Shown: positions 7,602-47,544 of the stretch, piece by piece
How positions within the stretch are numbered: the first letter of the stretch is position 1
Layout: each line of letters starts with the position of its first letter
NCBI GenBank assembly: GCA_951406725.2
Contig: OX597833.1
Location: forward strand, 30,504,001 to 30,568,000
DNA length: 64,000 nucleotides
Origin: Octopus vulgaris
Taxonomy: Eukaryota
Direction: 5' to 3'
Position numbers and translations under genes: made by a program
Notes under the pieces: generated by a model
What the model saw: the letters and a program-made list of their open reading frames with translations, nothing else
What the model was told of the DNA's origin: nothing
The model's database searches: none

Positions 7602-10600
7602 TCATCATCATCATCGTTTAACGTCCGTTTTCCATGCTAGCATGGGTTGGACGGTTCAACTGGGGTCTGGGAAGCCAGAAGGCTGCGCCAGGCCTAGTTT
7701 CATCTGGCAGTGTTTCTACAGGTGGATGCCCTTCCTAACGCCAACCACTCCAAGAGTGTAGTGGGTGCTTTTTATGTGCCACCTGCGCAGGTGCCAAATG
7801 AGGCTGGCAAACAGCCACGATCGGATGGTGCTTTTTATGTGCCACCGGCCCGGGGGCCAGACGAGGCTGGCAACGGCCACAATCAGATGGTGCTTTTTCC
7901 GTGCCACCGGTACAGAGGCCAGTCGGGGCAGCGCTGGCAACGGCCATGTTCGGATGGTTCTCTTACGTGCCACCGGTACTGGTATCTCAGCTACAATTTC
8001 CATTGATGTTGAAAGATTTCGATTTCGATTTTCACTTGCCTCAACAGGTCTTCACAAGTAGGGTTTGTGTCCCAAGAAGGAAAGGTATGCATAAGTGGGC
8101 TGGCTACATCCCAGGTAGAGGCCATGGGTTATGGTCTCACTTGTCCTGCCTGGTCTTCCCACGCACAGCATACTTCCAAAGGTCTCGGTCTTTGGTCATT
8201 TCCTCGGTGAGACCTAAAGTTCGAAGGTCGTTCTTCACCACCTCGTCCCAGGTTTTCCTGGGTCTACCTCTTCCACAGGTTCCCTCAACCGCCAGGGTAT
8301 GGCACTTTTTCACACAACTATCTTCATCCATTCTCGGTACATGACCATACCAGCGCAAACGTCTCTCTTGCACACCACAACTGATGCTTCTTAGGTCCAA
8401 TTTTTCTCTCAAGGTACTTACACACTGTCGAGTATGAACACTGACATTACACATCCATCGGAGCATACTGGCTTCATTTCTTGCGAGCTTATGCATATCC
8501 TCAGCAGTCACGGCCCATGTTTCACTGCCATGTAGCATGCTGTTCGTACACATGCGTCATACAGTCTGCCTTTTGTTCTGAGCGAGAGGCCTTTTGTCAC
8601 CAGCAGAGGTAAGAGCTCTCTGAACTTTGCCCAAGCTATTCTTACTCTAGCAGTTACACTTTCAGCACACCCGCCCCCGCTACTGACTCGGTCACCTAGG
8701 TAATGGAAGCTATCAACTACTTCTAGTTTTTCTCCCTGGAATGTGGCAGAAGTTGGTCTCTGAGCATTTTCAGTGTTTATTGCTCCTGAGCATCTGCCAC
8801 ATACAAAAACTATCTTCCCAGTTAGTTTTCCTTTGACATTGCTGGACCTCTTATGTGTCCATAGCTTACACTTGGTGCATCTTATAGAGTTTCTACCTAC
8901 GCCTTTTCTACTGATCAAGCAGGGCCATCTACCTGAAGGCGTTTATGATTTGCCTGCCTTCCTACATATTAAGACTTTGGTTTTAGCTAAGTTGATCTTA
9001 AGGCCCTTCGATTCTAATCCTTGTCTCCACACTTGAAACTTTGCCTCTAGTTCTGATAGTGACTCAGCAATTAGAGCAAGGTCATCAGCATAGAGGAGCT
9101 CCCAGGGGCATCCTGTCTTGAATTCCTCCGTTATTGCCTGGAGGACTATGATAAATAGGAGGGGGCTGAGGACTGAACTTTGGTGGACCCCTACCTCTAC
9201 TTTGAATTCTTTAGTGTACTCGTTGCCAACCCTCACCTTACTTACAGCGTCTCTGTACATGGCTTGCACAGCTCTCACTAACCATTCATCTATCCCTAGT
9301 TTCCTCATTGACCGCCAGATAAAGGATCAGAGGACCCTGTCAAAGGCTTTCTCCATGTCGACAAAAGCCAGGTACAGGGGCTTATCCTTGGCTAGGTATT
9401 TCTCCTGCAGCTGTCTCACCAGAAATATGGCATCAGTGGTGCTTTTTCCTGGCACGAAACCAAACTGCATCTCATCCAAGCAGACTCTCTCCCTAATCAG
9501 TTGGGCTATGACCCTCTCCGTAACCTTCATTACCTGATCCAACAGCTTGATACCTCTGTAATTATTTGTATCTAAAGCATCACCTTTACCTTTGTAGCAG
9601 TTGACTATTATGCTGCTACACCAGTCATTGGGTATGACTCCTTCGTGTATCACCTGGTTAACTATTTGGGTTACTAGGCTATAGCCAACACTACCAGATA
9701 TTTTAAGCATCTCTGCAGTAATTCCTGATGGGCCTGGGGCTTTCCCTGTCTTCATGCTACTAATTGCCTTAACTACTAAGGAACTGTCAACTCGGATAGC
9801 TGGTCCCTCTGTTGGGTCGACATTTGGCAGACTCTCTTTATCCCATTCATTTTCCTTATTTAGCAGCCTCTCATAATGATGTCTCCAAACCACTCTCTTT
9901 GCATCCTCATTTAGCGCAAGTGAACCATCATCCATGCGAACACATTTCTCTCCTACCACATCACGATTCTCTCTCACACACTGTCTTGCAACACAGAATA
10001 ACCTCAAGTCTTTGGTCCTCACGGTGCAGAACATTGGCAAATTTCTTCTTATCTACTTCCCTTCTGGCTAAATAAACCTGTCTTCTAGCTTCTCTTTTGG
10101 TAGTCTGATACATTTTCCTGCTACCACCATTTTTCCAGTCCTTAATGGCCCTGTCTACAACATTGTTCCACCACCACGTTATTTTGGCTCGAGAGGGGAC
10201 TTTGCACCAGCCACAGATCTGGTCCGTGGCTGTCAGCAGGTTGTCCCTTAGAGAGCTCCAGTTATCTTCTACCCCATGTGAAGCTATATCCCCTTCTACT
10301 TTGTCAAAGGCTTCAAGTAATATGTCCCTAAGTCTCTATCCATTCGCAGGATCTTTAAGCTTCCAGATCCTTCTTCTCCATGTTGGTCGTCCTCTTAGTC
10401 CTGATCCTAAAGTCACTAACTACCAGTTTATGTTGTGGGGTACATTCTTTGCCTGGGAAGGTTTTGGCATTTATAAGCAGCCATCTTTCTCTTCCTGGCA
10501 AGGATGTAGTCAATTTGGCTGGTATGTCGGCTCGGTAGGTGACTAGGTGGCTGGTAGGTTTCTTGAAGTTAGTGTTGCAAACCATAAGATCATTTGCATC

Positions 10601-10976
10601 GCAGAACTCTAGCAGCCTGGCTCCCTCCTCATTGTGGGAACCATAACCATAGCCCCCATGTACACCATGGAAGCCCCCAGCATGTCGTCCAACATGACCA
10701 TTGAAGTCACCAGCCACAAAGAGAAGGTCTCTGTCATTCGTCAACGAGGTAGTCTGCAGTAGGGTGTCATAGAATCGGTCTTTTTGTCCATCGGGTAGCC
10801 CCGGCTGAGGGGCATAGGTCAATATAATAGTTGCTAATCCATGATGTAGCACTAATCTAATCTTAAGTATTCTGTCACTTACTCTGATTACCTCTATTAC
10901 CTTATCTACCCATTTTTCAGCTAGAAGTATACCCACGCCTCCAAACCCGTCAGTGTTCCCCGCCCAGAAAATCTTG
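7599..10976 (-). mobile_element. RTE-clade LINE, near complete, frameshifted (APE + RT)
   Basis: APE motif LFVAGDFNGHVG, RT motifs QFGFVPGKSTTDAIF, VHQSSVLSPLLF, LLYADDL, C-terminal RGRPRKTW, (GAT)n tail. Confidence 0.95.
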
Positions 10977-11037
10977 TTGGATTCACAACCTCTAACTCTC
11001 CTAGAATTCCAAGAGAGTTAGAGGTTGTGAATCCAAC
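10976..11037. repeat. Near-perfect 62-bp palindrome centred on GAATTC
   Basis: gttggattcacaacctctaactctc / gagagttagaggttgtgaatccaac, 25-bp perfect arms. Confidence 0.9.
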
Positions 11038-11149
11038 CAACAAAGGGATAATATCTATCCAATATACTGCTCGTAGAATACCCAATTATCAATATACAAG
11101 TGTTTTTTCATTGCATGGAAATTACACTACTGAATGTAGTAAATGGGTA

Positions 11150-12754
11150 AGGGTAAAAAGTTTCCTCGCTAGTCTCCTGAAGGAATGTAGACACCAACTT
11201 GCAGTCCCTCTGACCAACCTCCGGAGAAATTTTTTAGATTCAGGTTATATACCGAAACAGCTCCTAACCAAGTCTGTCATCCCAGTTTTCAAGCAAGGAA
11301 ACAGATTCCTCGCAGTCAACTATTGCCCAATCTCACTCACCTCCTATATCATGAAAGTGTTTGAAAGATTGGTAAGATCAAGGATAGCTGGCTTCCTGGA
11401 GATCCACAAACTCCTAAATGCAAATCAGCATGGCTTTCACTGTGGCAGGGACTGTCTAACAGAGCTCTTATACCACATTGAGGATATACTTAAAGCCTTG
11501 GGAACAGGTTTGAACTCTGATGTCATATATTTTGACTTTGGTAAAGCATTCAACAGTGTTGACCATAATATCTTACTCTCAAAATTGGCAAATGTTGGAA
11601 TCCGTGGAAAGCTTCTACACTAGATTGAGTATTTCCTGGTGAATAGAACACAACATGTTCTGGTCAGTGGAGTCCACTCAATCCCAGCAAAAGTCAACAG
11701 TGGTGTCCCTCAGGGGACTGTCTTGGGCCTGCTTCTCTTTATAATCTACATAAATGACCTTTCCAGCGTTGTAAATCACTGCAAAGTGAAAATATTTGCT
11801 TATGACACTAAGCTCCAGCAAATCATCAATGAAGAAGACTGAACTCAACTCCAGTCTGATCTATATGCTGTGAGTGAATGGGCAGACAAAAACAAAATGC
11901 AACTAAACAAGGAAAATTTGAGCTGATGCATTTTGGAAGAAAGACTATACTAAAACAGGGAAACCACTCATAGCATCTAATAATATCAGAGACCTAGGAG
12001 TAATTGTTGGTAACAATCTCAATTGGAGTGCCAACATCAGCAATAAGGTCAATATAGCTCGTAAGATGAACTCCTGGATCTTAAGAACCTTCTGGTCCAG
12101 AGAACAAGGTGTCATTATTCCACTATTCCACTTTTCTCCTCCTTTGTACGGCCACACCTCGAATACTGTTGCCTCCTGTGGTCTCCCCATACAAAATAAA
12201 ACATCTTGAAAGTTGAATCACCCCAGAGGGCACTCACTAAACGAATTAAGGGCATAACTGATCTCAATTACTGGGACCTCCTTAAATCCTTGAAACTCTA
12301 CTCTCTCCAGCACCGCCGTGAGCGGTCCCTCATTTGCATGATGTGGAGAATATACTGCAGCATTGCCCAAACGACCTGAACATTATCTTCAAGGTTCATC
12401 CAAGGCTGGGACCATGGGCCATACATCCTCTGCCCAATTCAGGATCACAACATATAGGTACACTGCAACACAATCTCTTTTCCTCAACAGGCCCTGCCCT
12501 GTTTAACATTGTCCCATAACTGATCAAAGAGGAAAAGGATCCCATCACTTTTAAACAGAGTCTGGACAAATTTCTTCAAGGAATACCAGATAAGCCACCC
12601 ATACCTGGATACAACTCACTCAATAAGAACTCACTACTTGAATGGACCATAATACCACATAACTTGACTTAAAAAGGGATTTAGATAATCCTATCAGGTG
12701 GTGCTATTAAGTTAGACATGGTCTAGACCAATCTTTGGTCAAAACATATCTAAG
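11150..12754 (+). mobile_element. CR1-group LINE, 5'-truncated and degenerate RT
   Basis: NYCPISLTS, QHGF, YFDFGKAF, SGVPQGTVLG, FAYDTKL, GPALFNIVP. Confidence 0.85.
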
Positions 12755-12792
<38 letters not shown>

Positions 12793-12941
12793 AATATAAG
12801 AGAGTGGTCACTATATGGCTCACTCTAGCACCAGTTAATCCAAAAGGTTTCAACCACAAAAATACATGTTTCCCATGAAAGTCAGTACGATTGTTAGCTC
12901 ACACGGACAGGGCAAATAAAAAATAACAAAAATACAGATTA

Positions 12942-13023
12942 TTTTGGGACAATTGTTTCGCTATTAATGAATTAAATGTAATTTTACTTACAAAAAAATC
13001 CACTTGTAGCTCCTCAGCCAAAA
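12942..13023 (-). ncRNA. Type I hammerhead ribozyme (R1 copy 1)
   Basis: UUUUGG-CUGAGGA-GCUA[loop]UAGC-GAAA-CAAUUG-UC-CCAAAA: intact core, stems I and II, palindromic minimal stem III. Confidence 0.85.
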
Positions 13024-13476
13024 CTATCTGGATGAAATCCACTCAATCACACGCCAGATTTTACCATAACGATAAATACGCGTGTGGTTCAATTGATTAC
13101 ATCCGACGTTATAATTCAAATGCCCCAACTAACAGCGCGCCAAATTTTCACGGAAAACAAATACAGCATTTAGAAATAAATGCAGCATAATTATAATTAA
13201 TTAATAAGGGTGAGAGAATTAGATACTAATTTAATAGTATATCTATTCTACACCAAGTGGCCTAGTGCTCCGAGAAACCTGGATTATTATAATATTTTAT
13301 AATATATTATAATATTTTTACAAAATAAATATAAGAGAGTGGTCACTATATGGCTCACTCTAGCACCAGTTAATCCAAAAGGTTTCAACCACAAAAATAC
13401 ATGTTTCCCATGAAAGTCAGTACGATTGTTAGCTCACACGGACAGGGCAAATAAAAAATAACAAAAATACAGATTA

Positions 13477-13558
13477 TTTTGGGACAATTGTTTCGCTATT
13501 AATGAATTAAATGTAATTTTACTTACAAAAAAATCCACTTGTAGCTCCTCAGCCAAAA
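13477..13558 (-). ncRNA. Type I hammerhead ribozyme (R1 copy 2)
   Basis: Appears identical to copy 1, 535 nt away. Confidence 0.85.
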
Positions 13559-13875
13559 CTTACATTTAATTCATTAATAGCGAAACAATTGTCCCAAAAT
13601 AATCTGTATTTTTGTTATTTTTTATTTGCCCTGTCCGTGTGAGCTAACAATCGTACTGACTTTCATGGGAAACATGTATTTTTGTGGTTGAAACCTTTTG
13701 GATTAACTGGTGCTAGAGTGAGCCATATAGTGACCACTCTCTTATATTTATTTTGTAAAAATATTATAATATATTATAAAATATTATAATAATCCAGGTT
13801 TCTCGGAGCACTAGGCCACTTGGTGTAGAATAGATATACTATTAAATTAGTATCTAATTCTCTCACCCTTATTAA

Positions 13876-13949
<74 letters not shown>

Positions 13950-14359: not shown

Positions 14360-14547
14360 TTTCAGATACTCTATCCTCTAATTAGCCTTAAGATTAAATA
14401 ACGTTTTTTACCCAAACTTTAATATTGTTAATATATTTTCAGATACTCTATCTTCTAATTAGCCTTAAGATTAAATAACGTTTTTACCCACACTTTAATA
14501 TTGTTAATATATTTTCAGATACTCTATCTTCTAACTAGCCTTAAGAT
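14360..14547. repeat. ~76-bp minisatellite, left part
   Basis: Unit cagatactctatcttctaattagccttaagattaaataacgtttttacccacactttaatattgttaatatatttt starting at 14363, 14440 and 14516. Confidence 0.9.
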
Positions 14548-14964
14548 TGTAACGTGTAAGGATCTATCACCGAAGCACTGGAAGGGTGTCGAGATCCTTT
14601 CTAGTCACATACAAAATTCTTGCAGAAAACAAACAGACGAAACTCAGGTTAAGGTGAACAGACAACTTGGTTTATTGATTCATGGTTGTACGTTGTCTGA
14701 TGGGGGGAATAGACAGCCTCTGATATTCTGCTGGTGTTGGTCGTTGAGGTTGGTTGAAGTTGGTTGAAGCTGGTGTGTGGCTGTCAGAGCCAGGAAAACC
14801 GTGACCGATCGCAGTGCTGTCTTGAGCCGAAGAGGGAGATTTGAGGTTCGCGGGCTCGAGAGATGTTTTCCCGCACATGCGCATGGGGAAGACTTCCGGT
14901 GGCCACCCGGAAGTAGTCCCATTCTGCGCATGCGCGCCGAACCCTACACAGTAGCATCACTACA
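14548..14964 (-). repeat. 3' LTR (417 bp)
   Basis: tgtaacgtg...catcactaca; I see one substitution and one indel relative to the 5' LTR. Confidence 0.95.
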
Positions 14965-15093: not shown

Positions 15094-18000
15094 TTAAATG
15101 TAAATTGTTTTTGAAAGTTTCTTGGGCCAATGCACTGTTCTGCCCGATTTTGTAACATACGGTGTGCTCGGGGCACCCGTTGACGGCGAGGGTGGTGTTG
15201 TAGGAGCCGGTGAAGGCAAAGGCGTCTGTGCAGGTGAAGGTGTTTGTGCAGGTGAAGGCGTTTGTGCAGGTGAAAGTGTTGTTAAAGGTGCATAGGTGGG
15301 TGTGTCAAGGTTGTCATCAAAAGATGAAGACGTCTCAAAATGTGCCTTTTTTAAACGGTCCACGGAAACGGTCTCCGAACGACCATTTATCTCAATCGTG
15401 AAAACCTTTGGTGTGCGAGAAAGCACACGAAAAGGTCCTTTATAGGGAGAAACAAGTGGGCCCTTCACAGAATCGTCCCGAACAAAAACATGCGACCAGG
15501 TGTTCATATCCGGTGGAGATTGCTTTCTGGGAAGCATGGGCGGAAGGTTTGAAAAATATTCCCGCAGTCTGGTGACATAGGTCGCCGGATCATGGGGCGG
15601 GGAAGTGTCTGGCACCAACATCGTACCGGGCAATGCCAGTGTGGTACCATACAGCAGCTCTGCAGCAGAAAACCCCAGGTCTGCCTTGACAGCAGTCCGA
15701 CAGCCGAGAAGCACAATGGGCAGAAATTCGATCCAGGACTGTGGGTCTGAAGAGGCACGAAGAGCGGCCTTGAGCTGTCTATGGAACCGCTCAACCAATC
15801 CATTAGACGCTGGATGGTAGCTTGTGGTGTGGATATGGTGCATACCCAAAATTCGCGACAATTCGCGAAATAGCGAGGCCTCAAACTGTCGTCCACGATC
15901 AGTTGTCAATCGGGACGGGACTCCGAAACGAGAAATCCAGTTTGAAACGAAAGCTCGCGCAACAGTCTCAGCAGAAATGTCTGCTATCGGAATGGCTTCT
16001 GGCCAGCGAGAGAAGCGATCGACACAAGTTAATAGATAAGAGAACCCGCGACTCACAGGCCATGGTCCAACCAGATCGATGTGGACATGGCGAAAACGGG
16101 CCTCCGTGGGGGGAAATTGTCCAAGCGGGGCACGAACGTGCCGTTGAATCTTGGATCGTTGACACTTGGAGCAGGTGCGTGTCCAAGAAGTAATTGTGCG
16201 ACGCATATTCGGCCAGAAAAACCGAGCAGTGATTAGTTTGAGGGTGGCAGCGATGCCAGGATGTGATAAGGAGTGCAGTGCTTCAAACACTGAGCGTTGA
16301 TGGGTCTCAGGCACCAGTGGCCTGGGAGATCCAGTGGAAGTGTCACAAAGAATGGTGCCTTCGGCTGACGGAAGCGGAAGGTAGGAAAACTGGCAACAGG
16401 AGAACTTGGGAGAAGTTAAATCTAACGACGCCAAAGGTGGCTGCTCCTGCGATATGGCAGCTAAGTCGATAGCAGCAGGAGACGAAAGGGCGCAAACTGG
16501 AAGGCGAGAGAGAGCGTCAGCAGGAACGTTCTCTTTTCCAGGTATGTGTCGAATGTTGCTAGTAAATTGAGAGATAAAATCCAGGTGCCGAAAAGCACGG
16601 GGTGAGAGTTTGTCCGTTTTTGAAAACAGGGCAAACGTAAGGGGCTTGTGATCCGTATAGATCACAAAATCTCGCCCTTCAAGTTGATGCTGGAAATGAC
16701 GAACCGATAGATAGATCGCTAGGAGCTCACGATCAAAGGTGCTGTATCGTCGTTCAGCTGGTTGCAGTTGACGGGAAAAGAAGGCTAGAGGTCGAACATG
16801 GTCATCCACTGTGTGTTGTAACACAGCGCCAATCGCAGTGTCCGATGCGTCCACAGTCAAAGAGAAGCACCAGGAACTGGATGTGCAAGCAAAGAAACAG
16901 AAGCCAGCTCCTTCTTAATGGACTCAAAGGCTGTCACTGCCTCAACAGAGAGGGTGACTTGACTGTCCTTTCTAGGAGAGTCCTTTAACAGCCTGGTGAG
17001 AGGTAGCAGCTTATCTGCACAACCGGGAATGAAGCGTCGGTAGAAATTGACCATCCCTAGATAATGCCTGAGCTGGCGCAAGGAAGTGGGGGGTGCGATG
17101 CGTTGAATGGCATCGACTTTTGACGAGAGGGGGCTGATTCCAGTCGAATCAATATGATGCCCTAGAAAATCTAGGGAAGAGCGTCCGAAAACACACTTGT
17201 CGGGGTTTATGCGTATGCTATACGCGCGAAGACGCTGGAAGAGTTGAGAAAGGTGCCGGAGATGATTTTCTCGTGTGTCGCTCGCAATGAGTATGTCATC
17301 GACATAGGCAAATACAAAATCAAGACCGCGGACAACCTCATCAATGAAACGCTGGAAGGTGCTAGTAGCATTCCGCAAACCGAAACTCATGTACAAAAAC
17401 TCAAAACACCCAAACGGGGTAGTGATTGCAGTTTTTGGAACGTCGGCTGGGTTGACCGGTATTTGGTGGTAAGCGCGTATCAGATCGACCTTCGAAAAAA
17501 TGGTACAACCATGGAGATTTGCTGTAAAGTCCCGGAGATTTCTAATCGGATAGCGATCGGCTATTGTGACGGCATTGAGGCGTCGATAGTCTCCAACCGG
17601 GCGAAAATCAGACTCGCCCTTTCGCGCCAAATGAAGAGGAGATGCCCATAGGCTGGTGGAGGGGCGTATAAGGCCGAGTTGAAGCATGTGCTCAAACTCG
17701 GCTCTGGCCGTTTTTAGTCGGTCTGGCGCCAGGCGCCGGGGGCGTGAGAATACAGGTGGCCCATTGGTGGTGATGAAATGGAGGGTCGAGTGGGTAGGCT
17801 TTTCCGGTTTAAAGGCAATGTCCACTAGCTCCGGAAATGAAACCAAAAGAGAGTGAAAAGGGTCTCCAGAGGTGGCAACAAAGAATGTCGGGCTAAGGAC
17901 CGCAGTGGTGGAACTCCCAGTCGGTGTAGAGAGCGACGTCGTGCTATCAAGAAGCCTCCGACGCCTGACATCCACCAATAGGTTAAACCTATCCAGGAAA

Positions 18001-18330
18001 TCAGCGCCGAGAATAGGATGCGGGATGTCAGCGATGACGTAAACCCATCGAAAGTCTCGACGAAAGTTGAGGTCGAGGCGCAGCGAAATCTGACCGTAAG
18101 TGGTTATGGGAGACGAGTCAATAGCATGCAAGACAATCGAAGAGCGCTTGGGCTTGTCTGCAGCCAGACGAAGGGGCCAGATGCTGCAACAGGAGCCGGT
18201 GTCCACCATGAAGAAATTCTTCGACACCAGATCTTTTACATAGAATGCACGATGTTTGGGAAACGAGATGGAAGAAGGTGACGTGCTCACCTCCTCCGGA
18301 TTTAGTTTTCCGAGGGCTTGAAAGTGCACG
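15094..18330 (-). pseudogene. pol (protease, RT, RNase H, integrase) with a frameshift at ~16858
   Basis: VDTGS protease, YVDD RT, VDASD RNase H, HHCC and D,D35E integrase, GPF motif; split between ORFs 16857-18380 and 15094-16860. Confidence 0.9.
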
Positions 18331-19037
18331 GCTGGGTACACCGATCTGCCTTTTCGGCATATCTCGAATGGTACCAGCACCAGCTGGAACGAGAAACAGA
18401 GTCACTCCGACTGCGGGAAATAGAGCTACTGCGACTACGAGATTGGCGTCCGATCGCACGGCACAGATCATCGATCCTCCGCGTAAGCGCGTCGATGTTC
18501 TCGGCCAGTTTATCGTTCGTCGGAGGTGTCGGGGGGCTCTGTACATGCGTACAGGCCCCGCGAGGGAGATGGGCGCGAAAACTCCAACACTTTGTCGGCC
18601 ATCGTGGCGATCTGGTCCACAGACACAGCATCCAGTACCGTGGCCAACATTGTCTGCACGTGGGCAGGCAGCCTTGAGAAAAATATCTTACGTAAGAGCG
18701 GCGCGTCAGCGGCGTTGCCGCTTAGCTCTCTTAGATGGCGCAGAAATTGGGATGGAGTTCTGTCCCCTAACTGCTCGTCGGCCATCAGTTCATTAAACTG
18801 ACTTTCTTCTGAGCGCGTATTGCGACGGAGGATCTCCGCCTTTACTGACGCATATGTGGCGTCAGGATGGGGACTCACAATGAGATCCCTGACCGATGTT
18901 GCGAGCCGGGAGGGCAAACTTGAATACAGTAGATGTAACTGCTGTTGTGGCGGAATGGTATGCGCGGCAAAGTGTGATTCCACCTGTGCAAACCACAGCC
19001 CCGCATCCCCCGTAAATGAAGGCAAACCTGAAGCCAT
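18302..19037 (-). pseudogene. gag with a frameshift at ~18550
   Basis: MASGLPSFTGDAGLWFAQVE...LGDRTPSQFLRHL, then the CHCC knuckle in another frame, ending GGAAAAC-TAA (probable -1 gag-pol shift site). Confidence 0.85.
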
Positions 19038-19424
19038 GCCTTTGTCGGAAGGAATCTGTGAGAAGGGGGCAGAAGGTATGGTCGAGAAATGGAGAGAGAA
19101 CACGTGGAACCGAGAAGGCAAATCAAAATTGTGTTTGTGTGTGCACCTCGTGGGTAGCAAAAAAAAAGAGGAATAAGTGTGTACAAGGAAAACAAAATAC
19201 AGAAAAGGAAAAAATGAATGAATGTGTGTGTTTTCTTTTTTTTCTTTCTTTTTTTTTTTGTACTGTGTGCGATGAATAAGGTTATTTGACCCACCTCGCC
19301 GTGCTGAAAAGGAGAAAAATGAATCAAAATAAATATTAATTTTCCGCGCTCTTCGGCCCCCCAAAAAACCTGTTCGCTGTGTCTACTTCTATCCTGTTCT
19401 TTTTCTCATCTAGGGGTCACCAAT

Positions 19425-19840
19425 TGTAACGTGTAAGGATCTATCACCGAAGCACTGGAAGGGTGTCGAGATCCTTTCTAGTCACATACAAAATTCTTGC
19501 AGAAAACAAACAGATGAAACTCAGGTTAAGGTGAACAGACAACTTGGTTTATTGATTCATGGTTGTACGTTGTCTGATGGGGGAATAGACAGCCTCTGAT
19601 ATTCTGCTGGTGTTGGTCGTTGAGGTTGGTTGAAGTTGGTTGAAGCTGGTGTGTGGCTGTCAGAGCCAGGAAAACCGTGACCGATCGCAGTGCTGTCTTG
19701 AGCCGAAGAGGGAGATTTGAGGTTCGCGGGCTCGAGAGATGTTTTCCCGCACATGCGCATGGGGAAGACTTCCGGTGGCCACCCGGAAGTAGTCCCATTC
19801 TGCGCATGCGCGCCGAACCCTACACAGTAGCATCACTACA
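19425..19840 (-). repeat. 5' LTR (416 bp)
   Basis: Direct repeat of 14548-14964, followed on the - strand by the PBS. Confidence 0.95.
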
Positions 19841-20455
19841 AGATTAAATAACGTTTTACCCACACTTTAATATTGTTAATATATTTTCAGATACTCTATC
19901 TTCTAATCAGCCTTAAGATTAAATAACGTTTTTACCCACACTTTAATATTGTTAATATATTTTCAGATACTCTATCTTCTAATTAGCCTTAAGATTAAAT
20001 AACCTTTTTTACCCACACTTTAATATTGTTAATATATTTTCAGATACTCTATCTTCTAATTAGCCTTAAGATTACATAACGTTTTTTTACCCACACTTTA
20101 ATATTGTTAATATATTTTCAGATACTCTATCCTCTAATTAGCCTTAAGATTAAATAACGTTTTACCCACACTTTAATATTGTTAATATATTTTCAGATAC
20201 TCTATCCTCTAATTAGCCTTAAGATTAAATAACGTTTTTACCCACACTTTAATATTGTTAATATATTTTCAGATACTCTATCTTCTAATTAGCATTAAGA
20301 TTTAAATAACGTTTTTTTACTCACACTTTAATATTGTTAATATATTTTCAGATACTCTATCTTCTAATTAGCCTTAAGATTAATTAACGTTTTTACCCAC
20401 ACACTTTAATATTGTTAATATATTTTCAAATACTCTATCTTCTAATTAGCCTTAA
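19841..20455. repeat. ~76-bp minisatellite, right part (~8 units)
   Basis: Continues in register from the unit interrupted at 14547. Confidence 0.9.
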
Positions 20456-20516: not shown

Positions 20517-21420
20517 ATGTCCAGAGCCTGGAGACCTGACGAACTAGCGTTATTCGTACGAGCCTGGAAATGCGCCGATGGAGATAGCCCTAGCAATTTG
20601 ATTGCGGCTGCGCTGAAGAGCAGCGGCTACAAGAGGACAGCGGCTCAGATGGAGCGAAAGAGACGGGAATTCGTAGGCTCCTATGCGCTTGTACGGTCGC
20701 ACATTGGCGCACTTGATGCCATCTTTGAGAACGAGCGGGGCAAAGATGGCAAGAATGGAGACGATGAAAGAAGTCACCCCGACCTGGTGGACGCCCGGGA
20801 GGAGGTTTTGAGTGAGAAACCTGCCCGGGAAGTGAACCCAGGTGCAAGTTCTCCAACCGGCAGCAAGGGCCATGGAGACGGAGAACCCGGGAAGAGGTAG
20901 AGGAGGAAGAAGAACTAAAAGAAGGACTGAAAGAGCTAAAGGAAAAGCTCAAGCAGGACCAAAGGGTGAAACAACCAGGAATAGAAGTGGAACCGCAAAG
21001 GATGGAAACAAGCAGCACACACGGGTGTGTAGGTTCTACCTGAGAGGTACCTGCTGACATGGAAAGGAAGTGCAGGCTGCCGCTTTGCACATCGGGGACC
21101 CTGCCGCAGAGACACGAGGCAGATGGACAAGCCATCAACACAAGGAAAAGGGAAGGACCACGCACCACCTGCCCCAAAGCGGAGGTACGCAGATGTTGTG
21201 CGTGCCACAAACTGCCAACATGATGTTGTTGAAAGGGCAGCTGCTGAGCAGCAGTCTTTTTTGTGCATGGCACAAAAGATTGTACAGCAGCTGACCTGGC
21301 TTCATCAAACCCAAGCCCGCAGGTGGGACTACCCACTATATACAAGACCACCACAGCAAACAGACCCAGGATGGACACCGTCGGCAACAACATACACCTC
21401 ACCTCGATGCTCCTACTGAA
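20517..21420 (+). pseudogene. LINE ORF1: N-terminal Myb/SANT-like (trihelix) domain plus a CCCH zinc finger, disrupted
   Basis: WRPDELALFVRAW...IAAALKSSGYKRTAAQMERKRREF; CRFYLRGTC*HGKE / GCRFAH across a stop and a frameshift. Confidence 0.65.
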
Positions 21421-24367
21421 CATCAGAGGGCTGCAAACACTCAGTAACAGGACAAAAATCCCGTTCTTGAGAGACTTTGTTGCATGCAATCACGCCTTAT
21501 GCATAGCACTTACAGAAACGCACCTGAAACCGGACATAGCAGATGCGGAGTTACACATACCACAGTATGTTGTACTACGGACCGACAGAAAAGAAAGGAG
21601 TCATGGAGGAGTAGCTATGTACATCCGTGAGGACCTCACACCCCAGGTCCTCTTGTCATACTCAAACTCGGTGTGTGACACACTAATTGTACATATAAGG
21701 CAACTTGATGTAGTTGTGTGTGCTACATATCGCCCTCCAGATGCCCCAAGCCATGTGGGCAAGTTTGAAGACTGCCTTATAAAAATAGAAGAAGTTCTAA
21801 TCACATTAGAACAACACATAAGTGTACTTCTTATGGGAGACTTCAATCTGCCCAATGTCAGATGGCCCGAGGGCCTTTCTCTCCCAGGAATGACAAGATG
21901 TGAACGAGGACAGGCAAGGTCCCTCCTGAACCTCATCAACACCCTGTACATGGAGCAGGTAATACTCCAACCAACCAGGGCAGGTAACACACTGGATCTC
22001 TGCTTCACAAATGACATGGATCTCATCCATAATGTGAAAGTGACACCGACACTACTCTCGGATCACAACATGGTAGAGCTGACCATGTTCGGGCCAAAAG
22101 AGAGCACGGACATGCAGCCTACAAGAAACCCTCAGAATCTTTCCGGCTTGAACTACCATAAGGCAAACTGGAAACAAATTGAGAAAGAGATCCTCAAACA
22201 AAACTGGCCTAAATGTCTCTCCTCGACAGACATCGACGTGAAACTTCAACAATTCATGTCTGTAATGCAAGCCATATGCAACAAATGCGTCCCAGAGAGA
22301 AAGGCCACTGTACACAAGAACAAAATCCCCAGAGAGAGGAAAATTTTATGAGACGGCGTACAAAAATTTCAAATCGCCTAAACAAACAGATTGAAAGCAG
22401 TGAAAAGTCCCGCCTAAAAATAAAACTGTTGGAAATTGAAAAATGTCTGCAACTCTCCCATGAAAAAGAAAGAGCAGACAAAGAAGCCTGGGCTATAGAC
22501 AACATAAAATCTAACCCCAGAGCTTTCTACAGGTATGCCAAAGAAACAGCTACGGTGCACTGTAGAATAGGGCCACTCCTTGAAAAGGATGGCACACTTA
22601 CAGGAAAACCAATGAGGGTAAGTGAAATACTGAATGAGCAATTCAAGAGTGTTTTCACTCCACCCCTTGGGCATCTCCAAATCACCAATCCAACTGACTT
22701 CTTTACCACTGCAGATATAAAATCAGAGGCGGCGACGATAGATTACATCGATATAAAGGAAGACGATGTAATCAAGGCTATAGATGAAATGAAAACAGAC
22801 TCAGCTACTGGCCCCGATGGATTCCCGGCAATCCTCCTAAAAGCATGTAAGAGAGTCCTAGCAAGACCACTGCAGTTCCTCTTTCAGAGCTTCCTTGCAG
22901 CTGGCAAACTTCCAAGAAAACTGAAGGAAGGTAAAATATGCCCCATTCATAAAGGAGGTAGCAGAGCGGAGGCCAAGAACTACAGACATATCTCTCTGAC
23001 CTCACACATCAGCAAGGTCATGGAACGAATAGTCAGAAGGAAACTGATCACCTTCCTTGAAGAGAATGACTTGCTGCCCGACACCCAACATGGTTTCCGA
23101 CCAGGGAGAAGCTGTTTAACTCAGCTCCTGCAGCACTATGACTGGGTGCTTAAACGGCTGCTCAACCACTCAAATGTGGAAGTGATATATCTCGACTTTG
23201 CAAAGGCCTTTGATAAAGTCGATCATGGAATGATATGTCACAAACTGCGTGATCTCAACATAGTTGGAAAACTGGGAGAATGGCTTCATGACTTTCTGAA
23301 AGATAGAAGTCAGGTGGTAGTAGCCAATGGGGCCACTTCCATTAACACGCAAATAGTGAGAGGTGTTCCGCAGGGCACTGTTCTGGGACCACTACTGTTC
23401 ATAATGGCCCTCTCAGACATGCCCTCAGCCACGCAGAGAGCCACGATCACAAGTTATGCAGATGATACAAAAGTCTCACAGGCAATACAGAACCCTATAG
23501 GACACTAAACGCCTGCAATGTGAGCTAGACAAAATATACAAGTGGGCTGAAAAGAATAGCATGCAGTTCAATGCTGAAAAGTTTCACGCTTTATACTATC
23601 AGCATGCAAAACTAAATGCAATACCCAATGAATACACTGGACCCGGAGGAATAGCAATCCCAGAGGCACAATCAGTGCGTGACCTAGGTATTTACATGAG
23701 TGATGACGCAACCTTTCGTGTACATGTTGCTAAATTGGCAATGAAATGTAGACGACTGGCCGGATGGATCCTCAGAACCTCTAGAACAAGAGAACAAGAA
23801 ACCATGATGGTCCTCTGGAGGACACTTGTCCTAAGCCACTTTGACTACTGCTCTCAGTTATGGTCACCATCCAGTGTCAAGTTGATCACAGAGCTCGAGG
23901 CGATCCAACGCAGCTACACGAAGAAGATAGCCTCTATGCAGAATGTAAGCTACTGGGAAAGACTCAAGAGATTAAAATTATATTCCTTGGAGCGTAGGCG
24001 GGAAAGATATGCCATAATATACATCTGGAAGATCCTGGAGGAACGTGTCCTAAACTTTGGCATCGAGAGTTACGCAAATGCCAGAACTGGGCGCCACTGC
24101 GTGGTGCCTAGGACTCCAAGTTTGCCATCAAGATGTAGGACAAGATTCTGTGATAGCCTGGGCTTCCGTGGCCCACAGCTCTTCAATATCCTCCCGAAGA
24201 ACCTGAGAGACCTGCATGGGGTGGATGCAGATGTCTTTAAAATGAAACTGGATCTCTTCCTGTCAGGTGTCCCAGATGAACCAACTTCACGGCAGGAGGT
24301 GCAGATGAGGGCAGCTGCATCGAACTCTCTCATGCACCAAATGGCAGTTGCTAAAAAGCTTTCGTGA
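21371..24367 (+). pseudogene. LINE ORF2 (APE endonuclease + RT), two frameshifts (~22348, ~23505)
   Basis: Three consecutive ORF segments: 21263-22351, 22213-23508 and 23561-24367. Confidence 0.9.
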
Positions 24368-39947: not shown

Positions 39948-41436
39948 CAATAACAAGAATTCAAGACAGGATGTTTCTGGGAGCTCCTCTATGCTGATGA
40001 CCTTGCTCTAATTGCTGAGTCACTATCAGAACTAGAGGAGAAGTTTCAATTGTGGAAACAAGGATTAGAATCGATGGACCTGAGAATCCACCTAGCTAAA
40101 ACCAAAGTCCTAATAAGTAGCAAGGCAGGCAAACCACAAACTCCTTCAGGTAGATGGCCCTGCGTGATCTGTGGAAAAGGCGTCGGTAGAAACTCTATAA
40201 GATGTACCCAGTATAAGCTATGGACACATAGGAGGTGCAGCAATATCAAAGGAAGGCTAATTGGGAAGACAGTTTTTGTATGTGGCAGATACTCAGGAGC
40301 AATAAACACTGAAAATGTGCAGAGAACAACTTCTGCCACATTCCAGGGAGAAAAACTAGAAGTAGTTGATAGCTTCCATTACTTTGATGACCAAGTCAGT
40401 AGCGGGGGAGGGGGCGATGAAAGTGTAGCGGCTAGAATAAGAATAGCCTGGGCAAAGTTCAGAGAGCTCTTACCTCTGCTGGTGACAGAGGGCCTCTCAC
40501 TCAGAGTAAAAGGTAGATTGTATGACGCATGTGTACGAACAGCCATGCTACATGGCAGTGAAACATGGGCTGTGAATGCTGAGGACATGTGTAACCTTAC
40601 AAGGAATGGAGCCAGTATATTCTGTTGGATGTGTAAATTCAGTGTGCATACTCGACAGAGCATTAGTACCTTGAGAGAAAAGTTGGACCTAAGAAGCGGT
40701 TGATGGAACCTGTGGAGGAGGTAGACCCAGGAAGACTTGGGATAAGGTAGTGAAACATGACCTTCGAACATTGGGCCTCACCGAGGTAATGACTAGTGAC
40801 CAGGACCTTTGGATATATGCTGTGCTTGAGAAGACCCGGCAAGCCAAGTGAGACCATAACCTTGTGAACTATGCCACTGGTGTAACCGGCCCACTTATGC
40901 GTACCTTTCATTGGACACTAAACTCTGCTTGCAAAGATCTGTTGAGGCAAGTGAAATCGAATACAAATTCGATGACTGGCATCAGTGCTAGTGGAGCACT
41001 AAGAGTACCATCTGAGTGTGATCTTGCCAGAGCAACAAGCTGACCTCCGTGCTGGTGGCACATAAAAATTACCATTTGAGTGTGATCATTACCTATGTCA
41101 CCTAACTGGCACTTGTGCTGGTGGCACATGAAAAAACATTCGAGCGAGTTCATTGCCAATGCCGCTGGACTGGCTCCTGTGCCGGTGGAACATAAAAAGC
41201 ACCATTTGAGCGTGTCCGTTGCCTGTACCGCCTGACTGGCCCTCGTCTCAGTGGCATGTAGAAGCACCCACTACACTCTCAGAGTGCTTGGTGTTAGGAA
41301 GGGCATTCCAGCTGTAGAAACTCTGCCAGATCACATTGGGGTCTGGTGCAGCCATCTGGTTCGTCAGACCTCAGTCAAATCGTCCAACCCATACTTGCTT
41401 GGAAAGCGGACGTTAAACAATGATGATGATGATGAT
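39948..41436 (+). mobile_element. RTE LINE 3' portion
   Basis: ELLYADDL...GRWPCVICGKGVG, 3' UTR and (GAT)n tail. Confidence 0.9.
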
Positions 41437-42263: not shown

Positions 42264-42299
42264 ATATATATATACACATTTATATATATATATATATAT

Positions 42300-42490
42300 A
42301 AATATGAGAGAGTGACTATGTGGTTAATTCTAGCGCTAAAAATAGCTCCGTTACTGGTATAGCCACTAAAACTTGTTTCCAAGATGCTAAAAATAGCTCT
42401 GTTACTGGTATAGCCACGTGTTTCCTCTTGGAAACAAGTTTTAGTGGCTATACCAATAATGGAGCTATTTTTAGCATCTTGGAAACAATA
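42300..42490. repeat. Short tandem-plus-inverted fold-back immediately 5' of the PLE ORF
   Basis: gctaaaaatagctc-gttactggtatagccac occurs twice, then its reverse complement at 42427-42476; the left end resembles the R1 terminus. Confidence 0.75.
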
Positions 42491-42500
42491 AATTATATAT

Positions 42501-44402
42501 GATATCCCGGCACTGTATGGACTTCGCAAGGACCATAAAGTTTTTACTGACCCTATAGCAGGACCACCAACAAGACCAGTCTGTGGAGCGAATATTGCTA
42601 GCAATTACAGAATCTCCTACTTCCTCTCAATGATCATACGCCCTATAATCAGGATGTCACCTGATGTGTGTGACAGCACAGAAGATCTCCTAAGCAGGAT
42701 CAGTGACTGTAACAAAACTTGTGACTTGACAGGATGTATAGTAGGTAGCATGGATGTGGTATCCCTATACCCATCGATTGACGTAGACTTTGCAGTGGAG
42801 AAGTGCGTGGAGATGATCAACGAGAGCCAGGTGGAGTTCTGTAATGTCGACACAGAAGAACTGGGCCTCCTACTTAGACTGACATATAATAATGAATACT
42901 TAGATAAACATAATCTTAGTAGTTTCTGCCCCAGTAGATGTTTAAGAGGTAGACCGCCTACAATTACTTCTATGGCTAGGAAGACACATATAGAAAGATG
43001 GCGCGGATGGACCAGAGCCATACGGAGCCCCGCAAATGTCCATCAGGTAAAGAAAATGATCGCACATGCACTAGGAGCTAGTATAAGAGTTACCCTAAAA
43101 GGCCACACATTTAAATTTAATAATAAAATATATGCCCAGGACGAGGGGGCAGCCATCGGTGTTAGTATCGCTGGTGATGTGGCCAACCTTTTCATGGTAT
43201 GGTGGGACAGAAGGCTTAAAGAATGCCTACTGCAGAAATCCATACTCGTAAACATGTATTCTCGCTATGTTGATGATATCAACATAGTAGTAAAGGCACC
43301 CCCACAAGAGAGTAATGTTGATATAGTAATAGAAACTAATACTATGGAGAGCATCCAGCAAATAGCTAACTCCATCCACCAGAGTATTAAGGTCACAATA
43401 GACTACCCCACTAAACACCCCAACCATAGACTACCAGTACTAGACACTGAACTCTGGCTAGAAATTGTGAAAAATAAAACCCAAATCCTTCATTCATACT
43501 ATGCAAAACCTATGGCCTCAAAATACCTAATCCACCGGAACTCAGCCATTGCGGGCAATGCCAAATTCAATATTTTGATGGCAGACCTCGTCAGAATAAT
43601 GAGAAATGTGTCACGCATGTGCGAGCCTACAGAATTAAAGAGACACATACAGTATTTCATTCACCGCATGCAGTTCTCAGGTTACAGCCATAAAGAAAGG
43701 ATCAGAGTATACAAAGGAGCCATGAAGAAATTTGATAATATATTATGTAATGATAGGAATGGGATTTGCCCAATCTATAGGAACAAGTCATAGAACACTA
43801 TAGAAAGGACAAAAAAGAAAATAGGGAAGGCCAACTCTTGGTATGATAGCCATAAATACCAGAGTGTCATGTTCGTTGACACCACCCCTGGAGGTGAACT
43901 GGCGTACCGCTTTAGAAGGACCCTAGATAAACTTAAACTAAGAATTAAGGTTGTTGAAAAGCCAGGCAACCCTATCAAATCTATAATTGGTAGAACCTAT
44001 CCTTTTAGTAGAACCCTCTGTACGGATAACTATTGCACTGTATGTAGATTTAGCCCACAAACAAACTGTAAAGCCAGAAATGTAGTCTATAGTATAAGAT
44101 GTATAGAGGGACGATGCAGTAACAAGACAGTAACATACGTAGGGGAAACAGCAAGAAGCATAGGAGAGCGGGTGAATGAACATTGGAGACAACTCAAGGA
44201 AGGTAAAAGCTCATCGATTCTGTACCAACACGCCGAACAGGAACACGGGGGATCAATCAATAACATAGAGATTAAGATATTGTCCACACATAGAACAGAT
44301 GCAACAATTAGACAAATTACAGAAGCTACACATATAATAGAAAATAAACCTAGCCTGAATAGAAAACTAGAATGGAGCAATAGCACACACCACAACATAT
44401 GA
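42501..44402 (+). mobile_element. Penelope-like retroelement RT + GIY-YIG ORF, 5'-truncated, one in-frame TAG at 43791-43793
   Basis: PALYGLRKDHK, PPTRPV, GSMDVVSLYPSID, QDEGAAIG, RYVDD, LPVLD; Cys-rich linker CTDNYCTVC..C (Neptune-like); VVYSIRC...YVGETAR...R..EH. Confidence 0.93.
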
Positions 44403-44488
44403 CGATAGAGGATCCTGAAAACATAATAAATACACAGATAAATAAACAAATAGAAATTAATAACTATATATATGTATATATATCTATG

Positions 44489-44545
<57 letters not shown>

Positions 44546-44916
44546 GTGTATATATGTGTGTATATGTATATATGTATATGTATATATATATATATTTTTT
44601 TTTTCGATTAGATTTATTATTATTATTACTAATATTGTTGTTATACATACATACAAGCATATGTAATGATAATAATGGGTGGATGTAAACACATGAACAA
44701 AATTAGAACAAAAACAACAACAACAAAAACAAAATACAAATTACAAGAATGTATATAAACAGAAGATACAAATATTACAGGCATCCCCCCACCACACACT
44801 AAATAAACATAGACGCACATAGAGATATAAGCATGCGCAAATGAAGACATACAATAGAAATACAAAATGGCTGACGGTTAGTAAGGAGAGACACAAATAA
44901 GTGAGAAGAAAACAAA

Positions 44917-44961
44917 GGACCACTGATGCGGTCACAGGAATGTGACGAAAGAACTTTGGCC
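44917..44961 (+). ncRNA. Variant hammerhead motif in the PLE 3' region
   Basis: GGACCA-CUGAUGCG-GUCAC aggaau GUGAC-GAAA-GAAC-UU-UGGCC, same strand as the PLE ORF. Confidence 0.6.
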
Positions 44962-45265
44962 GAAATAAGATTAAGATTAATGTAAAAAATAAATATCACT
45001 GAAGCAAAATAACACCAAATATATAGTGCGTGTGTTTTTATTGGCTAAACTGGCAATATGACCATTCCGAAATATAACAATATCTGTTTCAACACACGAC
45101 TTCACATAAAAAATCTTGCACAACAAATATTTAAACGTATATATATATAGATATGTATATACATTTGTATATATATATATATATATATATATAGATAGAT
45201 ATGTATATACATTTGTTTTTATATATATATGTATAGATATATATATAGATATGTATATACATTTG

Positions 45266-45309: not shown

Positions 45310-45508
45310 CGGGAAGCTTTATGAAAATAAACAAAAGACGAAGGCAGGTGGAAAACAAACGAACAATTGTATTAGTATGGCGCTCAGGAAATATAAATAA
45401 AACAAGTCTTTAACGTTTCGAGCCTACGCTCTTCAACAGAAAGATACACAGAGAGAGAAAAACACAGAAAGAAGGAGAGAAAAAAAATGCGTGCAGTAGC
45501 TAACGAAT

Positions 45509-45511
<3 letters not shown>
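45310..45511 (-). repeat. Family A dispersed repeat (best-preserved HHR-like motif at 45407-45444)
   Basis: UCUUUCUG-UUGAAGA-GCGUAGGCUC-GAAA-CG-UU-AAAGA on the - strand. Confidence 0.7.
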
Positions 45512-45545
<34 letters not shown>

Positions 45546-45569
45546 TATATATATCGATATGTATATACA

Positions 45570-47544
45570 TTATGTGGGCTATGGCCTAGTCACCCACATT
45601 GTAAACCAGGTAGTTCACAATGGAGTCATACCCAATGACTGGCGTAGCAGCACCATAGTCAACTGCTACAAGGGTAAGGGCGATGCTCTGGATAGAAATA
45701 ACTACAGGGGTATTAAACTGTTGGATCAGGTGATGAAGGTCACAGAGAGGGTCATAACCCATCTCATTAGGGAGACAATTTGCTTAGATGAGATGCAGTT
45801 CGGTTTTGTGCCGGGTAGAAGCACCACTGATGCTATATTCCTGGTCCGACAACTGCAGGAGAAGTACCTAGCTAAAGATAAACCCCTCTACATAGCTTTT
45901 GTGGAGTTGGAGAAAGCCTATGACAGGAAATTGATGAATGGCTAATAAGGGCTGTACAGGCTCTATACAGAGAGGCTGTCAGCAAAGTTAGGATTGGCAA
46001 CGCATATAGTGAAGAATTCCGGGTAGAAGTAGGTGTACACCAAGGCTCAGCCCTCAGTCCCCTTTTATTCATCATAGTCCTCCAGGCAATAACAGAGGAA
46101 TTCTAAACAGGATGTCCCTGGGAGCTCCTCTATGCTGATGACCTGGCTCTCATAGCAGAATCACTACCGGAACTAGAAAAGAAATTTTGGGTGTGGAAGC
46201 AAGGGTTAGAATCAAAGGGCCTTAGAGTAAATGTAGCAAAGACCAAAGTTATAGTAAGCAGAAAGGCGAACTCAGCACACACCCCCTCGGGCAGGTGGCC
46301 CTGCTCGATCTGTAGGAAAGGTGTAGGTAGAAACTCCATAAGATGCACCCAATGTAAGCTATGGATGCATAAGAGGTGCAGCAACATCAAAGGGAAATTA
46401 ACTGATAAGATAGCTTTCATGTGTGGCAGATTCACAGGGACAATAGACACCACAGACACTCAGAAAACTGATTCCATCACACTCCAGGGGGAGAAACTAG
46501 AAGTAGTTGATAGTTTCCGCTACCTGGGTGACCAAGTTAGTAGTGGAGGTGGATGCTCAGAGAGTATCACCACTAGAATACGAATAGCCTGTGCAAAGTT
46601 CAGAAAGCTCCTACCCCTACTGGCGACAAAAGGTCTCTCGCTCAGAGTGAAAGGTAGATTGTATGATTCATGTGTGTGAACTGCCATGCTTCACGGTAGT
46701 GAAACATGGGCTGTGACTGCAGAGGACATGCGTAGACTTGAAAGAAATGAAGCTAGCATGATCCACTGGATGTGTAATGTCAGTGTGCATGCACGACAGA
46801 GTGTAAGCAACCTGAGAGAAATGCTGGACATAAGAAGCATCAGATGTGGTGTGCAAGAGCGACGCTTGCGATGGTATGGTCATGTACTGCGGATGGATGA
46901 GGAGAGATGTGTGAAGAAGTGCCACTCCCAAAGAGTTGAAGGTATCAGGGGGAGAGGTAGACCCAGGAAGACATGGGATGAGGTAGTCAAGCATGACCTC
47001 AGAGCGTTGGGCCTCACTGACGCAATGGCGAAGGACCGAGATCTCTGGAGATATGATGTGACTGCAAAGACCCGGGCTGCTTCCTGCACCAGTTCCGCAT
47101 AGCCCACTGCCCATTTAAAATACCCTGGATCCCGGAACGTCTCGCTGTGCTTGAGGAGACCTGTTGAGTCAAGTGCATGTACATGAACATCGAAACAAAT
47201 ATCAATGGAAATAGTAGTTGTGATAGCAGTGCCGGTGGCACATAATAAGCACTATCCGAACGTGGCCGTTGCCAGCACCGCCTTGGCTGGCTTCCGTGCC
47301 GGTGGCACGTTAAAAGCTCCAACCGATCGTGGTCGATGCCGGACCCCCCTGGCACCTGTGCAGGTGGCACATAAAAAGCACCCACTACACTCGCGGAATG
47401 GTTGGCGTTAGGAAGGGCATCCAGCTGTAGAAACTCTGCCAGATCAGACTGGAGCCTGGTGCAGCCCCTGGCTTCCCAGACCCCGGTCGAACCGTCCAAC
47501 CCGTGCTAGCGCGGAAAACGGACGTTAAACGATGATGATGATGA
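45570..47544 (+). mobile_element. RTE LINE, 5'-truncated (RT and 3' UTR)
   Basis: IPNDWRSSTIVNCYKGKGDA, QFGFVPGRSTTDAIF, YADDL, tail. Confidence 0.92.

Follow-up and report, generated by a model that had tools for sequence, protein, structure and literature searches.

A non-LTR retrozyme of Octopus vulgaris with two head-to-head arms, probably copied into (TA)n by Penelope-type priming at two fixed sites

The window analyzed here, a 64,000-nt stretch of the Octopus vulgaris genome (contig OX597833.1), carries a 535-nt element that lies in a TA run where a LINE-like stretch ends. By direct comparison, 12787-13025 and 13322-13560 are the same 239 nt at an offset of 535, with 0 mismatches, and the 325 nt at 13560-13884 match 13516-13192 in inverted orientation, again with 0 mismatches. 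The locus therefore consists of two head-to-head arms, both with their 3′ ends directed outward into (TA)n (Table 1). The unit is numbered from C17 of the hammerhead, so that position 1 is 13483 in the window. Arm A ends at unit position 162, fixed site A, arm B ends at unit position 292, fixed site B, and the two overlap by 1 nt, at 13560. An earlier note on this DNA had described a unit repeated head to tail every 535 nt. The identical copies are there, but the locus is not a dimer: it holds 1.45 units plus an inverted arm, and this arm, its most informative part, had been overlooked. The unit is ORF-less, as the note had said, the longest ATG ORFs being 19 aa on the ribozyme strand and 52 aa on the opposite strand, and the body hairpin it had pointed out is present in the predicted fold. 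GC content is 32%, below 50%, and no LTR pair was found in the retrozyme loci mapped. Elsewhere in the window, Pfam identifies frames of Ty3-like LTR retrotransposons (RT, RNase H, integrase) and LINE fragments (APE, RT, some PHD). Tandem repeats of 76/155 nt at 14360-14548 and 19840-20455 lie at both ends of a Ty3-like element, probably inside its LTRs.

Table 1. Features of the locus, of the rest of the window, and of related families (window positions unless a locus is named)
Feature	Position	Strand	Basis
Left (TA)n target run	12756-12786	no strand	
Arm A, the 535-nt unit 1.45 times, head to tail	12787-13560	-	sequence comparison
Hairpin with AUA loop, ending ~13 nt ahead of site A	12801-12826	-	predicted fold
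Type I hammerhead, downstream copy	12942-13023	-	predicted cut 12948/12947
Predicted 535-nt monomer between both cuts (putative release and circularization)	12948-13482	-	
Long body hairpin directly 5′ of hammerhead	13030-13104	-	predicted fold
130-nt "tail," site A (internal copy 13322) to site B (internal copy 13192)	13192-13321	-	
Type I hammerhead, upstream copy	13477-13558	-	predicted cut 13483/13482
Arm B, inverted copy, unit 503-535 plus 1-292	13560-13884	+	sequence comparison
3′ half of third hammerhead in arm B, without the CUGANGA half	13565-13599	+	
Hairpin ending ~17 nt ahead of site B	13822-13867	+	predicted fold
Right (TA)n target run, then (AAT)n up to 13949	13885-13916	no strand	
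PLE-1 copy, 5′-truncated, RT and GIY-YIG, one in-frame stop, ends at B′ in (TA)n	42492-45139	+	
Ty3-like/LINE stretch	15094-19405	-	Pfam
Ty3-like/LINE stretch	21248-24367	+	Pfam
Ty3-like/LINE stretches	9330-11620; 39954-40703; 45397-46679		Pfam
Family 2, 476 nt, tail ~121 nt, same A/B layout	L082-L110		
Family 3, 534 nt, same A/B layout	L211-L234		
Further retrozyme variants	L276:694-1032; L209:8012-8089		

The element is one of many in this genome (2.8 Gb, 227 contigs searched). A search with the unit gave at least 225 matches, from 40 of 913 candidates scored. Exact patterns of an end plus TA occur 338 times for site A and 822 times for site B, and reversed controls gave 0; the genome-wide count proposed in the note thus comes to at least 822 exact ends. 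Arrays reach about 10 units per arm, and two complete hammerheads lie within one arm in 21 of the 78 loci picked by an end. The note had taken the insertion to be recent; the copies are identical over the 239 nt, and the family is young and abundant. Two more ORF-less families, 476 and 534 nt long and about 60 to 65% alike, have the same layout. The hairpin ahead of site A is retained with changed pairs in both of them, judging from predicted folds and sequences, and is a candidate start signal. Family 2 has a predicted hairpin similar to the one ahead of site B, which may also play a role there. A long hairpin like that of the body is predicted in family 3 as well, without a clear counterpart in family 2.

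Each hammerhead reads UUUUGG-CUGAGGA-GCUA..UAGC-GAAA-CAAUUG-UC/CCAAAA on the minus strand, the slash marking the cut. Stem I pairs UUUUGG with CCAAAA, the core is CUGAGGA and GAAA, the cut triplet is GUC, and stem III has 2 bp around the palindrome AAUU. The type I core (CUGANGA, GAAA, NUH), three helices, and an open stem I are all present, so the full core that the note had read in both minus-strand copies stands, with cuts predicted after 13483 and 12948. Stem II is a 51-nt extended arm closed by GCUA/UAGC rather than a short 4-bp stem-loop. A strict hammerhead descriptor finds 2 matches in the window and 0 in 100 shuffles. The Rfam check succeeded in part: Hammerhead_1 is found at 12942-13023 when 201 nt are searched, with 28.5 bits (E 2.3e-5), short of the gathering score of 34, but a scan of the whole window found none, probably because of the long stem II. 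The miRNA matches of the whole-window scan were rejected as AT-repeat and palindrome noise, all of them below gathering.

Conservation was examined in two sets. In 29 motifs from the three families, which were picked with the core pattern, both partners have changed in 5 of the 6 pairs of stem I and in 3 of the 8 of stem II, and 91% of stem cells pair, vs 32 to 46% in slid-partner controls. Stems I and II therefore covary among three families, one of the checks the note had suggested, with a support of about three or four independent lineages. The invariance of the core in this set is no evidence, because the core pattern selected the motifs and independent lineages are few. For family 1, that of the window, no core filter was applied to the alignment. 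Here C3, G5, A6, and A9 do not vary in 86/86 loci, U4 and G8 are kept in 84/86, and the 3′ core positions G12-C17 are invariant in 90/90. N7, the single free core position, has three alleles (19/31/36); only one of the 436 columns varies more. Some departures count against our best reading. All 5 units of locus L166 carry U4C, as do 9 of the 12 units of L194 and 11 of the 21 family 2 motifs. In families 2 and 3, the base of stem II has a U-U mismatch and the cut triplets are GUU/GUA. According to the available part of PMC3088659, U4C reduces activity in vitro yet supports viroid infectivity. The catalytic fold is predicted to lie 2.7 kcal/mol above the minimum, and a stem III self-duplex is predicted at -6.4 kcal/mol. 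The hammerheads are real as motifs, and their cleavage is predicted from sequence. With its tandem, ORF-less units, type I core, and covarying stems, the element holds as a dispersed, multicopy, mobile non-LTR retrozyme. The note's retrozyme reading stood on every feature examined; the circle, self-cleavage, and use of a dimer are predictions.

The rule by which the element is inserted can be counted. We fetched 40 loci by the A end and 40 by the B end, in list order, on contigs C1 and C2, and added best-match and long-array loci. After dropping 13 that overlapped or were cut by an edge, there were 117 non-redundant loci, of which 78 had been picked by a pattern that includes one end plus TA: 76 two-armed, 37 single-armed, and 4 complex. 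The two-armed loci combine A with B in 73 cases, A with A in 0, and B with B in 0, and 3 have one eroded end. Single-armed loci comprise 18 A and 19 B. Two-armed loci picked by the A end have a B partner in 26/26 (P = 2.7e-4 if the arms chose independently), and those picked by the B end have an A partner in 24/25, the other one ending at 146 (P = 1.4e-13 for independent choice). A and B ends run into TA in 194/194, and the arm junctions mostly show an overlap of 0 to 6 nt or a short fill-in. Retrozyme insertions thus carry the signature of Penelope-like elements (PLEs), an inverted 5′ arm, a one-sided tail, and an AT-rich target, and because of this two-end signature the PLE link is firmer than the earlier note had it.

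For a partner, we ran protein searches of the same genome with the window PLE, whose frame with RT and GIY-YIG and one stop spans 42492-44405, and with two distant relatives, which led to PLE-1 and PLE-2 only. PLE-1 copies are 98 to 100% identical, with several open frames of 1310 to 1312 aa and a tandem period of ~4583 nt; the closest named protein is 99% identical and labelled Octopus vulgaris. A CX4CXXC motif ahead of the endonuclease points to the Neptune/Nematis type, as the available part of PMC8557442 describes it. In intact copies, the 1312-aa frame contains a long insert rich in Asn, and its start codon is preceded by a variant minimal hammerhead-like motif; N-rich inserts like this one are described for rotifer Penelopes in the accessible part of PMC3846280. 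In all 13 loci with both ends resolved, PLE-1 (1312 aa) combines an end A′ with an end B′ in (TA)n, and its tail, between A′ and B′, is 56 nt. PLE-2 is 55 to 58% identical to PLE-1 in protein and has two fixed ends ~60 nt apart in (TA)n (one two-armed locus read); its terminal region is microsatellite-rich (L265-L267, L272-L280). The retrozyme unit gave AT-rich chance matches only against PLE-1 (best E 0.036) and no sequence match against PLE-2. Neither shares retrozyme sequence. PLE-1, which is intact and of similar age in this genome, is the best candidate partner, judged by its age, its target, and its anatomy.

Retrozymes and PLEs also meet in shared TA runs. The stretch 42296-42492 holds a two-armed family 2 relative, small and with 57 nt duplicated internally, that ends at its site A in (TA)n and adjoins the PLE-1 copy of the window. 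With TA between them, the pair may be a nested insertion or a chimera. L276 is a second place where a retrozyme relative adjoins a PLE, again with TA between, and may be a nested insertion too. Nesting of elements that share a TA run is seen at L009:2323-2895, L129, and L195; the cases include a retrozyme within the TA run of a PLE-1 terminal region and a family 3 motif beside family 1 arms.

We then considered the template. In the comparisons, 99 homopolymer or AT-only columns and 6 nt at every 5′ end were masked. The arms of one insertion diverge at 0.31% of site pairs and units in one arm at 0.26%, vs 2.56% for different loci, and arm pairs are identical in 37/56. The arms of L170 differ at 15 of 161 sites, which counts against the reading of one template. 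The 5′ ends of the two arms lie at most 35 nt apart in 14/48 loci vs 4.0 expected (0/5000 permutations), and arm lengths correlate (rho 0.53, or 0.41 without the near-coincident loci). The 70 fully covered loci hold 50 haplotypes, each of them nearly uniform. Variants private to a locus and fixed throughout its copies number 21, of which 11 are in both arms, and one 12-unit insertion is without any discordant site. The near-uniform haplotypes and fixed private variants favor passage through a single unit and then re-multimerization, as the rolling of a circle would give. A further 21 variants are common to some units only, most of them in four long arrays with block-like recurrences, and local exchange therefore acts too. 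The long arrays of mixed units are L191, L192, L193, and L194: the B arm of L193 switches back and forth between two haplotypes, and L194 mixes U4 and U4C units, with its close relative L166 fixed for U4C. Among 186 arms, a count that leaves out the 4 complex loci, 5′ truncations fall at the ribozyme cut in 4 cases vs 3.9 expected, and none of 296 unit-to-unit crossings of the cut site has an insertion. A cleaved linear monomer is excluded as the template because there is no truncation excess at the cut and the crossings are clean.

The inverted arm might also arise by self-priming, in which the first cDNA folds back and copies itself, a route proposed for Penelope in the available part of PMC3846280. 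Arms that share a haplotype, the near-coincident 5′ ends, and short inverted fill-ins at some junctions would all follow from it. However, the arm lengths fit such copying from neither arm in 27 of 74 two-armed loci, and in 10/48 the B arm lies wholly inside the tail and has no sequence in common with the A arm. Such non-overlapping arms exclude the idea that the inverted arm generally comes from fold-back; fold-back could account for a subset only, and we rate it improbable. Since it is insufficient, each target end would have had its own priming event, whether on the same RNA or on two RNAs of one source locus. Separate priming leaves room for another template, an uncleaved linear multimer from the source array, with the ribozyme trimming some transcripts and unequal exchange and conversion keeping arrays uniform. 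Several observations suit it: uncleaved RNA is the main in vitro substrate of the anole PLE, U4C copies have spread, long arrays have partly shared variants and block duplications, and the absent barrier at the cut fits a linear multimer as well as a circle. But daughters could then never be longer than their source, a new mutation fixed in all units of both arms needs extra homogenization, and yet the many haplotypes are each nearly uniform. Core and stems are, moreover, retained across three families. A register test for a mixed multimer template, uninformative to negative, found minor alleles in the same register in both arms in only 3/52. We regard the linear multimer as rather unlikely and lean modestly toward a circle as the template.

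The predicted circle would fold at -145 kcal/mol with 68% of its bases paired (z -6.2), but this stability is no evidence for the strand, because the opposite strand also folds well (z -5.3, vs -7.0 for the hammerhead strand). Back-joined contig junctions were rejected as evidence of a circle, being the same joint as the genomic tandem junction. Alternatively, the unit might be no more than a coding PLE's terminal repeat that truncation left behind and local amplification turned into a minisatellite, a route discussed in bioRxiv 10.64898/2026.07.22.740005, as far as that preprint was available. The ends, target, and hammerhead type are as in PLE terminal repeats, long arrays are locally reshuffled, and the PLE families looked at were PLE-1 and PLE-2, not all. 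Against this, arms pass from unit to unit without an ORF, and no PLE reading frame is joined to a retrozyme arm in the 110 fetched loci searched, though one insertion does sit inside the TA run of a PLE. Arrays on many contigs share fixed 3′ ends, and three ORF-less families keep the whole unit. We find this origin very improbable.

In our main reading, to which we give a probability of about 70%, a non-LTR retrozyme is copied into (TA)n by a PLE enzyme that primes two fixed sites on one template, likely a circle. The PLE-type two-site priming in it is very likely. The array would be transcribed on the hammerhead strand, self-cleave at GUC, and be ligated into a 535-nt circle. A dimer of PLE RT/GIY-YIG would bind near the hairpins ahead of A and B and cut (TA)n. 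One target end would be extended from A and the other from B, giving the products seen at the loci. Copying crosses the cut site freely, as the 296 passages show, and can go on for several turns. Two 5′-truncated arms would be joined head to head, with the small overlaps or short fill-ins seen in the products, or one arm would be kept, and long arrays may be reshuffled locally afterward. A difficulty comes from Xenopus, where 8/9 predicted retrozyme dimers showed no cleavage, which counts against this reading. A bolder and doubtful version makes every two-armed insertion the clonal record of one RNA circle and a dimeric enzyme with one subunit per target end: both subunits, at hairpin-marked sites, would roll around the same circle, always giving one A and one B. 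If true, one rule would cover how PLEs in general come to have tandem and inverted structures and a one-sided tail, and in octopus, A-to-I edits made in the circle could enter the genome through such insertions.

Octopus is known for heavy A-to-I editing. In contigs of runs X1, X2, and X7 over 12790-13290, there are 16 differences that read A>G on the hammerhead strand vs 5 that do so on the other strand. Removal of alleles present in at least two genomic loci leaves 10 vs 1, five of them clustered at unit positions 4-10 in stem I (P = 0.001 assuming independence, which clustered sites break). This pattern looks like A-to-I editing and is a lead only, the RNA origin being a guess and two of the runs being labelled as another organism. 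Private fixed variants, 5 A>G vs 6 T>C, give no support to editing written into genomic copies.

The value of the element lies more in a testable mechanism than in the ribozyme. PLE tandem and inverted insertions with a one-sided tail are named as an open problem in the available part of PMC8557442, and the movement of animal retrozymes has so far been inferred from co-occurrence and homology. The retrozyme is a short, young, abundant substrate with a countable insertion rule (A plus B, one haplotype, no stop at the cut). Since PLE-1 follows the same rule, two-end priming and circle templating could be tested in vitro with a 535-nt RNA. The family also adds hundreds of perfect inverted repeats to the octopus genome.

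The class of non-LTR retrozymes and the proposed PLE and circle route have been published (PMC7229834; PMC4209133; bioRxiv 10.64898/2026.07.22.740005, each as far as available). With the metazoan retrozymes of Cervera and de la Pena (2020, PMC7229834, in its available part), the octopus element shares the ORF-less tandem unit, low GC, type I hammerhead, 2-bp stem III with a palindromic tetraloop, highly paired predicted circle, proposed PLE partner, and circle template. It differs in its unit length (535 nt vs 170 to 400 nt), its 51-nt extended stem II, and its two-armed insertions into (TA)n, whose two ends are fixed. Circles are demonstrated there, whereas the octopus circle is predicted from sequence. 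The main text of PMC7229834, as available, has no mention of inverted, microsatellite, octopus, or cephalopod. The vertebrate retrozymes of Li, Clavereau, and Pollet (2026, bioRxiv 10.64898/2026.07.22.740005) share the PLE link, and the octopus unit is within their range of 51 to 972 bp. Their evidence, in the part of the preprint available, is co-occurrence and terminal-repeat homology (24/57 Xenopus families), whereas the octopus link comes from insertion ends, with no homologous PLE found among PLE-1 and PLE-2. That part of the preprint favors local amplification, samples no mollusc, and does not mention a "tail."

In open-access literature we found no octopus or cephalopod retrozyme, though supplements and repeat libraries may hold the family, and no report of two-armed anatomy in a retrozyme or count of A plus B pairing or same-haplotype arms. 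The main text of the O. vulgaris repeat annotation (PMC13282606), in its available part, has no hammerhead, ribozyme, or retrozyme; its repeat library may contain the family. For PLEs, an inverted arm and a tail on one side only have been described (Craig et al., 2021, PMC8557442; Arkhipova et al., 2013, PMC3846280). Compared with the available parts of those papers, the octopus tail is 130 nt vs 30 to 40 in endonuclease-bearing PLEs, the RNA is non-coding and would be moved in trans, the one-tail rule is counted (73/73 resolved), and the arms are tied to one haplotype. The Poseidon PLE of Anolis cuts and extends both strands in vitro (Frangieh et al., 2024, PMC11167929). It has a predicted dimer and, like the octopus retrozyme, AT-rich targets and two internal start sites or ends that define the tail. 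No difference in start site was seen between its two target strands, and no pairing of sites within one insertion is reported; it inserts uncleaved RNA, and hammerhead cleavage is dispensable in vitro (PMC11167929). The class, the PLE link, and the one-sided tail are thus known; the papers searched contained no octopus example, no strict A plus B count, and no same-template arms.
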